Assembly: GCA_048365975.1 (NCBI GenBank)
Contig: DBFOUY010000213.1
Span: 1-41,710 of the forward strand
DNA length: 41,710 nucleotides
Reading direction: 5' to 3'
Source of the DNA: Eubacterium sp.
GTDB taxonomy: Bacteria > Bacillota > Clostridia > Oscillospirales > Acutalibacteraceae
Shown: in pieces, positions 5,078-18,610 of the stretch
Layout: every line of letters starts with the position of its first letter
Position numbering within the stretch: position 1 is the first letter of the stretch
Notes under the pieces: model-generated
The model's database searches: none
The model's input: the letters and a program-made list of their open reading frames with translations, nothing else
What the model was told of the DNA's origin: nothing
Program-made: the position numbers and the translations under genes

Positions 5078-5120
5078 TTATTAATAATATTCTTCAATAT
5101 TTTGTATATATTTACTAAAA

Positions 5121-5174
5121 AATATATTTGTTGAAAAAAGTATTATTGACATATTGCCATATCCATGGTAACTT
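5121..5174 (+). promoter_or_regulatory. Conserved operator-like motif plus sigma-A promoter (copy 1)
   Basis: AATATATTTGTTGAAAAAAGTATT (5121-5144), TTGACA (5146-5151), 17 nt spacer ending in TGG (extended -10), TAACTT (5169-5174). Confidence 0.75.
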
Positions 5175-5275: not shown

Positions 5276-6375
5276 ATGAAAAGTACAAGAAAAATAATAT
5301 CTGTCATATTAGTAATAATTTTACTATTTGTCCAATTCCTCTATTAGTGTGCATGCTTCAGATAATAATTCGGATGTTGATTCAACATTATATATCTATT
5401 CAAAGGAATGTCCTGTTGATTATGTTGAATATGCAAAAAGACAATATTGAGCAATATTTCGGTGATATAGTTTTTGATTCTAATGAGGTATCGCTTGGTT
5501 ATCCTTTTACGTTTTCAAATTACGATTCAAATATATTTTATTTTCCTATAATTGATAATGGAAAAATCGCTATGCTTTTTAGGGTGTTTGAATCAGATGA
5601 AGGGTTAACAGGTGTTGGTTCAGAGTTTTTATGTGATGAATTACAAGATTTTTCAACAAAAACAACCGAAGAAAACCCTTTGAATTTATATGTTGACGGT
5701 AACGAGATAATTGCCGAAACATCATCAGGCAAAGAGATATTATTTGAATATCCTGAGGAAATGAATTTTGACGAAGAGCAAATTACAGGATATTCGTTAT
5801 ATACAGATAACGATAAGAATGATTTTGTTGTTGTAAATTTGTTTGATGAAAAAATTGATACTATTGAAGTGGGTATTTCGATACACGAGAGTATATCAAA
5901 TTATATTACTCTGAATTTAATGGAGTATCAAACTTCAGAACCTTGGTGTGCGGCGTATGCAGCATCCACGATAATCAGAACGATAAAGGCGGATACAAGC
6001 TGCATGGTTCGTTCTATAATGAATTATTATTATTCAAATCCATCGGGACAATCCGTTTCTAATCAACAGGTAAAGGATTTTGCCAAAAAGAAATATTCTT
6101 TGAAAGTTAAAGAAACCACTTCATTATTTGGAACTCAAGCAATAAAAGAGATTGATGCTAACAGACCTGTTTGGTATTGTATGAAAGCAGATGTAGGTTT
6201 GCATACAGTTGTTTTGCGCGGCTATCATGCCTCAAATGGAATTTATTCAATCTGGAATCCGTGGTTTAAATTTTATGAAACCTTTAAAATGGGTGGAACA
6301 TACTGTCCCACAAACTATACATCGAATTCATATAAGTTCAAATATTTTTCCGCAATATATAACTGGACAAAGTAG
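5276..6375 (+). CDS. Secreted staphopain-like (C47/papain-fold) cysteine protease precursor; two single-base frameshifts in the 5' part
   Basis: Catalytic motifs EYQTSEPWCAAY, GLHTVVLRGY, SIWNPW; pro-region FYFPIIDNGKI. The signal peptide MKSTRKIISVILVIILLFVQF-SISVHA is restored only if one base is removed at ~5339 and one at 5435-5439. Confidence 0.75.
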
Positions 6376-8868: not shown

Positions 8869-8923
8869 CAGAAGGTTTTTAATTCATTTGCCTTTCCACT
8901 TGCCCAAAAGCTGAATAAAATTT

Positions 8924-9085
8924 TCGGCAGGTATCCCGACTTATGATATAGAAATTTTAAGAACTTCGCTTGATACACCAACTTAAAGTGTGTCTTTCGT
9001 CAAATACGGTAATGGCGGTTGCTTAGGATTCTAACCTAATTCCCTTTTAATTTCGGCTTGTTGGACTGAAAACCGAGTAGCTATT
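8924..9085 (-). ncRNA. Cobalamin (B12) riboswitch
   Basis: GGTT...TTAAAAGGGAATTAGGTTAGAATCCTAAGCAACCGCCATTACCGT core and B12 box AAGTCGGGATACCTGCC; promoter TTGACA (9129-9124) / TATAAT (9105-9100) upstream. Confidence 0.9.
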
Positions 9086-9129
9086 TAATTTACAAGTTGA
9101 TTATAACATTAATAGACTGTTGTTGTCAA

Positions 9130-14424: not shown

Positions 14425-14605
14425 ATTTTTTCTCCTTTAATAACAGGGGTGTTCAGCGAAATTTTAAAAATTATCAATTCGCATATTTATAATATTATAA
14501 TATGTTTCTATAATAAAATCAACTTTTACTTGTTTTTAAATTGTTTATGTAGTATTATAGGGTGACAAGGCTAAACTATGTTTTATCGAAAGGTAAGTGA
14601 ACTAT

Positions 14606-16213
14606 ATGATTCAGGCAAGCAATATAACTGTTCAATTCGGCGGAAGAGCGCTGTTTGAAAGAGTTAATGTTACCTTTTCAGCAGGTAACTGTTATGGAAT
14701 AATCGGTGCTAACGGTGCAGGCAAGTCAACCTTTTTAAAGGTTTTGTCAGGTGAGCTTGAGGCACAGAAGGGCGAGGTTTTCATTACTCCGGGTGAAAGA
14801 CTTTCTGTTTTAAAGCAGGATCACTTTGCATTTGATGAGTATGATGTTATCCGTACTGTTTTAATGGGTAACCCAAGGCTTATTGAGGTTATGGAGGAAA
14901 AGGATGCCCTCTATATGAAAGAGGATTTCACTGAAGAGGACGGTATTAAGGCAGGCGAGCTTGAGGCTGAGTTTGCTGATATGGACGGCTGGAATGCTGA
15001 AAGTGATGCTGAGTTTATGTTAAATAAGCTTGGTGTGTCTGACGAATATCATTATCTTAAAATGGCAGAGCTTCCGTCAGACCTCAAGGTTAAGGTGCTT
15101 CTTGCCCAGGCACTTTTCGGTAATCCTGATATTCTTCTGCTTGACGAGCCTACTAACCACTTGGATTTGTCAGCTATCCGCTGGCTTGAAAATTTCCTGC
15201 TGGATTTTGAGAACACTGTTATCGTTGTATCACACGACAGACATTTCCTCAATAAGGTCTGCACTCATATCTGCGATGTTGACTTCGGCAAAATTCAGCT
15301 TTATACAGGTAACTATGATTTCTGGTATGAATATACTCAGATGCGTCAGCGTCAGGCAAGAGATCAGAATAAAAAGAATGAGCAGAAGATTAAAGAACTT
15401 CAGGAATTTATTCAGCGTTTCTCAGCAAATGCTGCTAAATCAAAGCAGGCAACAAGCCGAAAGAAACAGCTTGATGCCCTTGAAATGATTGAAATGCCTG
15501 TTTCAAGCAGACGTTTCCCATATGTTGATTTTAAGCCTGACAGAGAGTGCGGCAATGATTTGCTCAGAGTTGACCACCTTACTAAAACAATCGGTGACAG
15601 AAAGGTGCTTGACGATGTTTCTTTCGTTATTCATCCGAGAGAAAAGGTTGCATTTGTCGGCAGTGACGTTGTTGCAAAAACTACCCTTTTCAAAATTATT
15701 ATGGGTGAAATGGAGCCTGATGAGGGTGAGTTCAAATGGGGAGTTACCACAAGTCAGAGCTATTTCCCAAGTGATAACAGCCCATATTTTGACGGCGTTG
15801 ATTTAACACTTGTTGACTGGCTCAGACAGTATACAACCTATACTCTTGAGGCTGATATTCGTGGCTGGCTCGGCAGAATGCTGTTCTCAGGCGACGAAGC
15901 ACTCAAAATGGCCAATGTTCTTTCAGGTGGCGAGCGTGTGCGTTGTATGCTCTGTAAAATGATGCTTTCAGGTGCTAATGTTCTTGTACTTGACGAGCCT
16001 ACGAACCATTTGGATCTGGAGTCAATCACTGCACTCAATAATGGTCTTATACGTTATCCTGAAACAATTCTCTTCACCTCTCACGACCATCAGTTTGTGC
16101 AGACTGTTGCTGACAGAATTATCGAGATTTCAGGCAATACTGTTCTTGACAGAAAGGGCACATATGACGAGTTCCTCGAGGATTTCAATGAAGAACAGCT
16201 TAAAAAGTATTAA
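14606..16213 (+). CDS. ABC-F family ATPase (YbiT/YkpA subfamily)
   Basis: Two ABC domains with no TM segment; GANGAGKST, LLLDEPTNHLD, linker RFSANAAKSKQATSRKK. Confidence 0.92.
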   Translation: MIQASNITVQFGGRALFERVNVTFSAGNCYGIIGANGAGKSTFLKVLSGELEAQKGEVFITPGERLSVLKQDHFAFDEYDVIRTVLMGNPRLIEVMEEKDALYMKEDFTEEDGIKAGELEAEFADMDGWNAESDAEFMLNKLGVSDEYHYLKMAELPSDLKVKVLLAQALFGNPDILLLDEPTNHLDLSAIRWLENFLLDFENTVIVVSHDRHFLNKVCTHICDVDFGKIQLYTGNYDFWYEYTQMRQRQARDQNKKNEQKIKELQEFIQRFSANAAKSKQATSRKKQLDALEMIEMPVSSRRFPYVDFKPDRECGNDLLRVDHLTKTIGDRKVLDDVSFVIHPREKVAFVGSDVVAKTTLFKIIMGEMEPDEGEFKWGVTTSQSYFPSDNSPYFDGVDLTLVDWLRQYTTYTLEADIRGWLGRMLFSGDEALKMANVLSGGERVRCMLCKMMLSGANVLVLDEPTNHLDLESITALNNGLIRYPETILFTSHDHQFVQTVADRIIEISGNTVLDRKGTYDEFLEDFNEEQLKKY

Positions 16214-16228
16214 TATGTTTTCATAATT

Positions 16229-16266
16229 AAAGCCTTGCAATCACACGATTGCAAGGCTTCTTTTTT
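16229..16266. terminator. Terminator of the ABC-F gene, potentially bidirectional
   Basis: AAGCCTTGCAATC-acac-GATTGCAAGGCTT followed by a T run. Confidence 0.85.
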
Positions 16267-16269
16267 ATT

Positions 16270-16570
16270 TGTTATGTATAAAAAATATGGGGAATGACTT
16301 GTTAAACCTCAAAATTGCGAATAATGATGAAAGAGTTATGGCTTTCATAAAAGGTTTAAGTTTGTCATTCCCCTGATTGAAGGCTTGCTTAGCAGATACA
16401 AGCCGACAAAACGAAAAAATTTTTTAGTGCAGTGCACCTCATTGAAGATTTATCGAATATTATTAGATTTTATAAACAAATTATAAACTTAATAGAACGA
16501 TTTTATTTGATTTGCTTAGTTTTTTTCAATAACCTTCAGAAGATTTCTGTTTGTTGAGGTAAATCTCCTA
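16270..16570 (-). ncRNA. Candidate structured non-coding RNA, unassigned
   Basis: ORF-free region downstream of an intact promoter; nested stems 16289-16298/16364-16373, 16302-16309/16352-16359, 16327-16333/16342-16348; hairpin 16382-16404. Confidence 0.4.
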
Positions 16571-16575
16571 AAATA

Positions 16576-16628
16576 AAGATACCATATTTTATATTATTTG
16601 TCAACAATATATTTGCAGAAAAAGTATT
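16576..16628 (-). promoter_or_regulatory. Conserved operator-like motif plus sigma-A promoter (copy 2)
   Basis: Motif AATATATTTGCAGAAAAAGTATT (16606-16628, + strand text), TTGACA (16604-16599), 17 nt spacer ending in TGG, TATCTT (16581-16576). Confidence 0.8.
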
Positions 16629-16667
16629 ATTTTATGAAAAATAAAAGAAAAAGCACGAATAAATTCA

Positions 16668-16853
16668 TTATTTATCCTTGTGGAACAAACCTGCAATGCA
16701 GAGAATGATTCCGATAAACGGAGCGAATATACCGATAAAAAGAATAACTCTCGAAGCAAAGTCTTCGCCTCCGGAAAATCCAAGAGCAAATACTGCATAT
16801 ACAAGCAATCCTATTCCTAAAAGCTGTAATTTAATTCCTAAATTCTTACTCAT
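16668..16853 (-). CDS. Small two-TM membrane protein (paralog of 17102-17290), candidate immunity protein
   Basis: MSKNLGIKLQLLGIGLL...GIILCIAGLFHKDK; purine-rich RBS upstream. Confidence 0.75.
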   Translation of the reverse strand: MSKNLGIKLQLLGIGLLVYAVFALGFSGGEDFASRVILFIGIFAPFIGIILCIAGLFHKDK

Positions 16854-16875
16854 CTAACACCAACCCCTTTTTGCG

Positions 16876-17040
16876 TTAATAGCCTATTACAAATAATCTG
16901 ATTACGATAATCGCTAACAAAAGGATTATAATAAATATGTTGCAATTATATAATTTCTTCTGATTAAGCATTATTTCTTTTAGATATTTTTCATAAGGAA
17001 GAGGGGTTTTGTTTTTTTGCTCTTTATTATCGCTATCCAT
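16876..17040 (-). CDS. Small C-terminally anchored membrane protein (54 aa)
   Basis: Manual translation MDSDNKEQKNKTPLPYEKYLKEIMLNQKKLYNCNIFIIILLAIIVIRLFVIGY; fills the gap between two co-oriented genes; below the ORF-track cutoff. Confidence 0.6.
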   Translation of the reverse strand: MDSDNKEQKNKTPLPYEKYLKEIMLNQKKLYNCNIFIIILLLAIIVIRLFVIGY

Positions 17041-17101
17041 ATTATAACTGCCTAACTTTTAATTGTAATATCGGAACATTTTTTCAGCAAAGCAACTGCA
17101 A

Positions 17102-17290
17102 TTACTTATCCTTGTAAAACAAGCCTGAAATGCAGAGAATTAAACCTGCGAATTTTGATAAATAAACACTGTGAACAATCAGACCATTCCAAAATCCGTG
17201 TGGACCTGAACCATATGACAGTGAATAAAAGGAAAATATAATTAGTGCAATGCCGAATAATTGCAGTTTTATTCCAAGATTTTTTTTCAT
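17102..17290 (-). CDS. Small two-TM membrane protein, candidate immunity protein
   Basis: MKKNLGIKLQLFGIALII...GLILCISGLFYKDK; AGAGG RBS. Confidence 0.75.
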   Translation of the reverse strand: MKKNLGIKLQLFGIALIIFSFYSLSYGSGPHGFWNGLIVHSVYLSKFAGLILCISGLFYKDK

Positions 17291-17318
17291 AGCAATACCT
17301 CTAATTTAGATTTTATAA

Positions 17319-18359
17319 TTATATAGCTGTAAATGAGAATTTATCTGCTCGATATTCGTCGAGAGCGGTCTTGGGACTCAGCGATAAACTAACTCCACCT
17401 TTTGATGCGCTTATTCCTATACTGCCAAGCGAAATCGTTTTATGACCATAAATACCTTGTATTACGCAATCTTCTTTCGATGGCACTTTAATGCCATAGC
17501 TCATATATGCTAATATATCAGCTACAACTCGCGCATGATTATTAATTGTTCTTGGGCAGGTGTAAATTGCTGCACTTCTAAGTTTAAAGCGAATGCCTTG
17601 AGCGTTTCCTACGAGATTGTCAACAGTAACATTTTTGTTTGTGTGGTAATCAGGTTTGTCAGCTGTTTTCCAAACTTGTGTTTTGTATTTGTAATTATAA
17701 GTACAGCAAGTGACAGTTTCTTCTAATTTTCCGTAAACCTCATGATTTGGATCATAAGATCCGCAGTCAAAGTAGAGAGCTAATACATCTTCAAAATGAC
17801 ATAAAGGCATTTTTAACCAATGTGCATACACAGCAATTTGATAGCCGACCTTCTTGTTGCTTAATATGCCTGTTTCTCTGGAAACAACATGCTTCATTTT
17901 CATATAACCATTATTAGATGTTGAAGGATTTGCTAATGGTGAAATTCCATAATCATCCCTGAACATTACTACTGTCATTTCATCTTCTGTCATTGATTCG
18001 GTATTTCCGTCTGCATCTACCTTTATGTAATTGTCAGATACAATGATTTCTTTAAAACCTAAATATTTTAATGCCTCTTCATCTTCTATATCAAATTCAT
18101 CTTGACCTGTGTAATCAACAATGAAATTGGCAAGTTCCAAATCATCAATATCCGGTATCTGATTGCGGACTTCGGTAACAAATTCTTCTATATTATTATA
18201 TGTTATTATTGGATTTTCCTTTGAATTATCTGTTGTGATTTCGATTATATTGTTTGCTATGCTTTCTAAAGCAGGTGCTTCATCAGCAAATATTTGCATA
18301 GGAAATGCAAATACAAATGCAAAAAGAACAGCAAAAACAGCAGAAAGTGATTTTTTCAT
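17319..18359 (-). CDS. Secreted pre-pro-protein, hypothetical (candidate effector A)
   Basis: Signal peptide ending ...QIFA; acidic region up to GISPLA, then a basic domain with HWLKMP...EDVLALYF and YGHKTISLGSIGISASKGGVSLSLS; AAGGAG RBS. Confidence 0.8.
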   Translation of the reverse strand: MKKSLSAVFAVLFAFVFAFPMQIFADEAPALESIANNIIEITTDNSKENPIITYNNIEEFVTEVRNQIPDIDDLELANFIVDYTGQDEFDIEDEEALKYLGFKEIIVSDNYIKVDADGNTESMTEDEMTVVMFRDDYGISPLANPSTSNNGYMKMKHVVSRETGILSNKKVGYQIAVYAHWLKMPLCHFEDVLALYFDCGSYDPNHEVYGKLEETVTCCTYNYKYKTQVWKTADKPDYHTNKNVTVDNLVGNAQGIRFKLRSAAIYTCPRTINNHARVVADILAYMSYGIKVPSKEDCVIQGIYGHKTISLGSIGISASKGGVSLSLSPKTALDEYRADKFSFTAI

Positions 18360-18475
18360 AACTTTATAACTCCTTTTAAAGTAAATTATTAAATCAAAAT
18401 TCTATATGCTGTCTGAATGCTCCATTGGAATCACATCCCTGCGTTACAAAAATTGGGCTCAATATCCCTAAATTA

Positions 18476-18528
18476 ACAATACCACAAATGTTATTATCTG
18501 TCAACAATATATTTTCAGAAATAGTATT
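18476..18528 (-). promoter_or_regulatory. Conserved operator-like motif plus sigma-A promoter (copy 3)
   Basis: Motif AATATATTTTCAGAAATAGTATT (18506-18528), TTGACA (18504-18499), 17 nt spacer ending in TGG, TATTGT (18481-18476). Confidence 0.8.
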
Positions 18529-18543
18529 GTTTTGAAAATATAT

Positions 18544-18576
18544 TAAGGAATGACCTGAAATAATGGTCATTCCTTA
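18544..18576. terminator. Hairpin separating the two secreted-protein cassettes
   Basis: TAAGGAATGACC-N9-GGTCATTCCTTA, a perfect 12-bp stem. Confidence 0.7.
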
Positions 18577-18610
18577 TGTTTTTGTATTTTATTTTCGGTT
18601 TATTATCTTG

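Follow-up and report, generated by a model that had tools for sequence, protein, structure and literature searches.

Several described systems resemble parts of the locus analyzed here. ANTAR proteins act on targets made of two short stems, with hexaloops carrying A1 and G4, upstream of a terminator, as set out in the available part of the source on the eut leaders (PMC3369931). Structured mRNA leaders of secreted toxins are opened by small RNAs in S. aureus, where the pairs are hla/RNAIII and lukAB/SSR42 (PMC12153306), and in C. perfringens, where VR-RNA opens the colA leader (PMC3328962). HAAS-PadR pairs have been proposed as alternatives to two-component systems (PMC11237479). These accounts and one further source (PMC6794450) are used here as far as their available portions extend. 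Judged by titles and the openings of abstracts, the literature held nothing relevant that describes the present element, and its three bulge strings were not found in those supplement files of PMC8040213 that were searched, although two other files may hold alignments.

The present study analyzes a window, i.e. the whole 41,710-nt stretch listed last in Table 1, from an assembly of 1.93 Mb (genome 90.6% complete; referred to as G000). The interval between an ABC-F gene (14597-16213, +) and padR (20049, +) is an array of minus-strand cassettes encoding signal-peptide proteins of 315 and 346 aa with small membrane proteins behind each, and the promoter copy at 16628 has about 340 nt downstream of it without a credible gene. 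A first-pass annotation had proposed that this second promoter copy points into a gene-free stretch, and this was borne out: TTGACA-17-TG.TATCTT is present, and on inspection none of the minus-strand open reading frames of at least 20 aa in the interval (23, 30 and 27 aa) had a Shine-Dalgarno sequence at working distance. The remaining promoter copies of the array are each followed by a leader and then a secreted-protein cassette. Patterns detected are consistent with an attenuator-like 5′ leader of a PadR/HAAS-linked secreted-protein cassette, whose gene was probably deleted here so that the leader is now orphaned, an explanation to which we give about an even chance.

Table 1. Positions of the features discussed, numbered along the window
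Feature	Position	Strand	Remarks
Sigma-70-type promoter TTGACA-17-TG.TATCTT	16576-16604	-	-35/extended -10 match; start probably near 16569
Conserved motif upstream of -35 box	16605-16628	-	Likely PadR operator/UP element
5′ hairpin	16538-16569	-	Present in G000, not conserved
AT-rich middle of leader	16410-16520	-	74-83% identity to relatives
Core hairpin 1 (GGCUUG/CAAGCC)	16382-16409 (stem 16404-16382)	-	5′ flank UUUGUC is part of a predicted antiterminator
Nested three-stem domain	16289-16373	-	Outer stem 10 bp, terminator-like; inner hairpin lost in G162
Unpaired bulge	16310-16326	-	Candidate factor-binding site
U-rich tail after outer stem	16279-16288	-	Putative termination site, probably leaky
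Likely scar: last codons and stop of lost 339-aa-type gene	16265-16276	-	Local alignment with L066/L068
Terminator hairpin common to convergent ABC-F	16230-16259		Same type ends 339-aa gene in filled alleles
Paralogous 61-62-aa membrane proteins	17102-17290, 16668-16853		Downstream of 346-aa gene
346-aa secreted protein	17319-18359	-	Paralogue of lost 339-aa protein (about 37-40% identity)
Short cassette-end hairpin with GGAATGAC/GTCATTCC arms, as in element's outer stem	18545-18575	-	
PadR (PF03551) and DUF6120/HAAS-like genes	20049-20806	+	Divergent from first promoter copy
Source stretch (the window)	41,710 nt		Eubacterium sp., GCA_048365975.1, contig DBFOUY010000213.1; own genome is G000

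The promoter had also been described as belonging to a regulon, and here the data point elsewhere. Allowing up to 7 mismatches, the 33-nt motif ending in the TTGACA box has three copies in the whole assembly, at 16628, 18528 and 19989, all within 3.4 kb, and because elsewhere in the genus this motif is found immediately upstream of a divergently oriented padR (13 of 13 loci listed, L027-L039), the supposed regulon is a tandemly duplicated padR-divergent promoter with every copy local. Among the loci listed, this padR-divergent motif precedes variable secreted-protein cassettes, and motif and -35 box were retained in all 10 of the promoter-bearing loci of the element. The first gene of the divergent pair in the window matched PadR over the cut-off, and its downstream partner matched DUF6120 over the cut-off; against HAAS the partner scored 21.7 bits, under the cut-off of 27. 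From their position, the promoter copies would be controlled by PadR. The arrangement is like the HAAS-PadR dyad, as far as the available part of PMC11237479 describes it, in having PadR followed by a DUF6120/HAAS-like membrane protein and VanZ-like genes in the array, and unlike it in that the contexts described there are PspC/Toastrack ones without an RNA element. Leaders behind the promoter motif also include many in which a Shine-Dalgarno-like run and then a conserved YCCRATG precede a tiny open reading frame (L027, L031, L035, L039, L041, L052, L081 and others); that in the window is MEHSDSI at 18440-18400 (-). Such frames, of 2-12 codons and about 60 nt ahead of the real gene, occurred in 14 of 34 distinct leaders, a count made without a shuffle control on loci that are related and not independent, and they could act as a ribosome-binding mRNA stabilizer or as a uORF switch.

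All hairpins named in the first-pass annotation are found where it placed them, and folding of the stretch beats shuffled sequence (z -6.57 for 16222-16569, 0 of 100 shuffles as good; -40.9 kcal/mol and z -7.10 for 16270-16420, which leaves out the ABC-F terminator, 0 of 200 shuffles), but the 5′ hairpin, at -6.1 kcal/mol, is weak, and 4 related lineages, in which 23-27 of 48 nt were identical, do not retain its pairing. The RNA had been thought to end at the ABC-F terminator. There is a hairpin at that site, called on the plus strand only by the terminator scan, but the outer stem of the element has its own U-rich tail, and the RNA may end there, about 50 nt before the ABC-F terminator. The outer stem has 10-12 bp and a U-rich tail in all loci, with a spacer of 3 nt and a loop of 65 nt; it was not called by the terminator scan, which cannot call a 65-nt loop. 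Its arms recur in short cassette-end hairpins in G000, G027, G069 and G093, and a terminator origin is therefore favored under any reading of the element. No Rfam 15 family matched the element at gathering threshold, the comparison that the first reading had proposed: all 23 matches in 16150-16750 were weak and below gathering, the best (26.1 bits) falling on the ABC-F terminator. Elsewhere in the window, cobalamin and FMN riboswitches scored above Rfam gathering at 8909-9092 and 40359-40478, and elsewhere in the assembly a second copy of the terminator hairpin of the ABC-F type was seen (G000:C262:663-702).

The element is a genuine RNA structure of the minus strand that is under selection and has a narrow range. 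Homologues were sought with blastn and with a covariance model built from five sequences, which match it by construction. Within the genus the element occurs in 5 of 145 genomes, its own included (G000, G027, G069, G093 and G162), and it was absent from 150 other genomes of the family searched with the covariance model (R1). One 24-bit model match among 150 genomes of the order was rejected as lying inside a coding gene. A pattern scan of metagenomes gave 17 loci, 6 of them true and 11 due to chance; a scan of a genome collection gave 13 matches, of which 3 were true but had the same model scores as G027, G069 and G162 and were counted once. Viral contigs gave 0, 0 and 1 chance match to the element and contained no relative of the secreted protein, while blastn against plasmids and phages returned short AT-rich matches only. 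Further copies of the core were not found in the own genome by blastn or covariance model, and with the core single there a repeated element was ruled out. Since the 11 loci are all adjacent or close to the same ABC-F gene and represent about six lineages, they are not independent.

Within these limits the core is far better conserved than its surroundings. In nine close loci the 122-nt core (16289-16409, -) was identical to G000 at 115-118 of 122 positions (94-97%), as compared with 62-70% at four-fold sites of the ABC-F gene (Fisher p 8e-9 for G027 and 2e-12 for G069), with 48-56% over the first 48 nt of the leader, and with the AT-rich middle. As this excess over synonymous sites holds in gene-less loci too, it supports a function for the RNA. 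G162, which is as distant by its ABC-F gene, has a core only about 76% identical, yet it keeps hairpin 1 and the outer and middle stems and 16 of the 16 compared nucleotides of the bulge. Because the plus strand of the G000 core also folds well (z -4.61), the minus strand was settled by relatives and not by the G000 sequence: the G162 core folds to -43.8 on the minus strand vs -29.9 on the plus strand, and 7 of 35 pairs are Watson-Crick in some loci and G-U in others when read on the minus strand, with 0 showing the A-C type expected of the plus strand, for which the binomial value of 0.016 is optimistic given that the structure was chosen on the minus strand. Pairs were broken in 5 of 35 cases, all in G162 and some through alignment register. 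Covariation, which had been put forward as a check, was not significant, with two-sided changes in 0 of the 35 pairs of the main structure. A protein on either strand of the element was rejected since frames differ among relatives.

What the element belongs to was indicated by its relatives. Three of the 11 loci (L066, L068 and L076) are filled alleles, in which promoter and core are followed by a gene for a 339-aa secreted protein that is intact and 98% identical between lineages; their leaders are 315-317 nt, with a good Shine-Dalgarno sequence and an ATG 36 nt past the outer stem, and no sigma-70-like site of at least 9/12 was found between core and ATG. Seven of the 11 have no gene behind the core, and their 3′ junctions are of three kinds, one being the window's own and two others being divided among the other six empty loci; one gene-less 3′ end is common to three lineages. 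No stem-breaking change was present in the core of any of the seven. The 5′ regions of L066 and L076 are those of the empty G027 and L070, and that of L068 is that of the empty L075, with 0 differences, so that gene-less alleles can be recent, and from the sequences gain or loss of the 339-aa gene is a polymorphism within lineages. Past the U tail, the window sequence can be aligned to the 3′ end of the 339-aa gene in L066 and L068 (last codons and stop) and on into its terminator, a terminator of a type absent both from 18 other ABC-F ends in the genus (L003-L020) and from the other gene-less alleles shown. We infer that the window allele arose from a filled allele by loss of about 1 kb; the two 3′ ends of the other six empty loci could be ancestral or could be separate losses. 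The first-pass suggestion of a remnant of a deleted third cassette thus stands in so far as the 339-aa gene is found in 3 of 11 loci and its terminator and last codons are shared, but the element is not decaying in the way a remnant would, as its core is far better conserved than synonymous sites. That annotation had reckoned as evidence against a regulatory RNA a protein gene at this place in relatives together with stems that do not covary, and this turned out half so, in that relatives do carry a protein gene and covariation is not significant.

Promoter, leader, stem with U tail and a competing helix make up an anatomy that fits an attenuator with termination as its default. Transcription would start near 16569, and the outer stem and U-rich tail would stop most transcripts after about 290 nt, unless polymerase were let through into the gene by an alternative UUUGUC/GACAAA pairing or by a factor binding the invariant bulge; this layer of control would add to that of the promoter, for which the neighboring PadR/HAAS pair is the likely regulator. 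In G000 either outcome would yield only a non-coding RNA of about 290-340 nt. The predicted antiterminator is a 6-bp helix between the 5′ flank of hairpin 1 (UUUGUC) and GACAAA in the 5′ arm of the outer stem. Before the 3′ arm of that stem is made, the G-run is predicted to pair with the hairpin 1 flank, and once the 3′ arm is made the outer stem is predicted to form, with U residues following. The helix is paired in 8 of 8 rows of the alignment, with one two-sided change (U-A to C-G in G162), but this is equalled by 69 of 500 shuffles, the helix is worth only about -6 to -7.5 kcal/mol, and holding the 3′ arm open costs 13-16 kcal/mol in folding energy. The order promoter, element, gene, with no second promoter between, was found in 3 of 11 loci, G000 not among them.

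Comparison with known leaders helps to place this arrangement. Judged from the available part of PMC3369931, it is like the eut leaders in its promoter, long leader and G+C-rich stem with U-rich tail before the Shine-Dalgarno sequence and in having a helix that overlaps the stem at its 5′ arm and competes with it, and it is unlike them in lacking an AxxGxx dual hairpin or Rfam aptamer, in its folded 65-nt loop, and in the absence of the regulated gene from 7 of 11 loci. An ANTAR protein is encoded in the own genome, in which a search for antiterminator proteins gave one NusG match only and no CAT_RBD; G000, L068 and G162 had 0 ANTAR-type hairpins, and each of the 4 remaining rows had no more than 1, well away from the core. 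The hla, lukAB and colA leaders, as presented in the available parts of PMC12153306 and PMC3328962, likewise are long folded leaders before a secreted protein, and the likeness extends to the weakly haemolysin-like predicted fold of the 346-aa paralogue and to the start region of the filled allele, which is predicted to be mostly paired; the difference is that the present element would be the leader and not the activator. If it is an attenuator, then the HAAS-PadR systems, which have been little studied, and a secreted-protein family that has no name and may form pores would gain an RNA switch, and the natural filled and empty alleles with identical promoters provide a ready comparison. The general importance of the element is limited by its confinement to a single clade of a single genus.

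An alternative explanation, which we hold as a tentative possibility, is that the core is itself the product, a small RNA of 290 nt (or about 130 nt if processed) induced together with the secreted-protein cassettes and acting through its bulge, with the 339-aa gene an optional passenger reached through a leaky terminator. This would account for a core that is 95-97% conserved in gene-less loci of five lineages while flanks differ by 17-54%, for the gene-less 3′ end that three lineages have in common, and for an outer stem with the arms of cassette-end hairpins, as expected of a 3′-terminal element. G162 also fits, since its homology starts exactly at the 5′ edge of the core, its bulge is unchanged, and its copy ends another operon: it lacks the promoter-proximal 180 nt and is placed 15 nt past the end of an unrelated operon for a secreted protein and an ABC exporter, the next gene, 220 nt further on, being VanZ-like and having its own promoter-like site. 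The first reading had likened the element to effector RNAs such as RNAIII and VR-RNA, and it does share with them a copy of the promoter of its signal-transduction locus, a stable fold and secreted-protein genes alongside. It departs from them in its restriction to one clade of one genus, in the protein gene behind it in some strains, and in its targets: the best bulge duplex over 1560 start regions reached -20.4 kcal/mol in a crude screen without an accessibility term, and 6 of 20 shuffles were as good or better, so no target stood above background. Presence in 5 of 145 genus genomes and 0 of 150 others of the family also weighs against a small RNA. Moreover, cassettes move between lineages (G000 and G069 have 315-aa genes that are 94% identical, although ABC-F four-fold identity is 64%) and sequence at the 3′ end of the core tracks the filled allele from lineage to lineage; such exchange can inflate the conservation of the core. 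A trans-acting role is conceivable because gene-less copies are kept as well as filled ones, and if the gene-less RNA is functional it would show a leader in the course of becoming a small RNA. Along the same lines, but in our view doubtful, the element could be a portable structured RNA cassette of about 125 nt, shuffled among the secreted-protein cassettes of PadR/HAAS loci and kept with or without a gene, serving as a trans-regulator or as a decoy for an RNA-binding factor, with interbacterial haemolysin-fold proteins in gut-type Clostridia as its proposed targets.

Recombination could also explain the likeness among copies with no switch at all, if the element were a more elaborate form of cassette-end terminator that also anchored, by homology, the swapping of cassettes. 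Its arms do match the short hairpins that end other cassettes in G000, G027, G069 and G093, the G162 copy fills a cassette-end slot before the next promoter, and allele mosaics break inside the core; however, this leaves hairpin 1, the invariant bulge and the structure-keeping divergence of G162 unexplained, and a plain terminator would silence a 339-aa gene that is intact and nearly identical between lineages, and we consider it improbable. It is very improbable that a leader peptide is the sensor, with translation of a short open reading frame from 16348 (MKAITLSSLFAIL...) bringing a ribosome to open the outer stem: in G162 the frame is preserved, the differences being a 3-nt gap, two synonymous changes and two conservative ones, and in L066 the end of the frame overlaps the gene start, but a Shine-Dalgarno sequence is lacking up to 20 nt from the ATG, which itself pairs in the inner hairpin, the loci differ in the length of the frame (13 to 52 codons), and one divergent sequence gives no statistical power. 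Type I toxin mRNAs have a sequestered Shine-Dalgarno sequence near a conserved small hydrophobic open reading frame and an overlapping antisense RNA, and this identity was rejected, as the G-run of the element is sequestered but lies 0 or 20 nt from two ATGs and the length of the frame is not conserved.

Under the orphaned-leader explanation, the regulated product would resemble the 346-aa protein of the neighboring cassette. The 339-aa protein has relatives at 60-67% identity, the range over P0004-P0010 being 60-78%; the 346-aa protein had no match in Pfam, 117 relatives at E of at most 0.001, and unnamed Bacillota clusters in the Atlas. Its structure model (pLDDT 79.6) was topped by haemolysin/leukocidin structures in both searches, but weakly: the best Foldseek match had E 5.6e-6 but TM 0.26 and rmsd 23.8, and VIA gave Z 9.4, rmsd 3.6 and 159 aligned residues, tied with pilin domains at Z 8.8. 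The model thus weakly suggests a haemolysin/leukocidin-like beta-sandwich, and one guess would be a secreted antagonist with the small membrane proteins as immunity-like partners. The interval from ABC-F to padR (16214-20048) appears as a cassette hot spot, also in L021, L052, L053, L055, L066, L068 and L075, with secreted proteins, small membrane proteins, VanZ-like genes and ABC-exporter genes swapped between lineages. Outside this interval, at 5097-5147, the promoter motif had a fourth, weaker match (E 4e-4), upstream of a gene for a secreted C39-like peptidase (5347-6375) and a lipoprotein-like gene.
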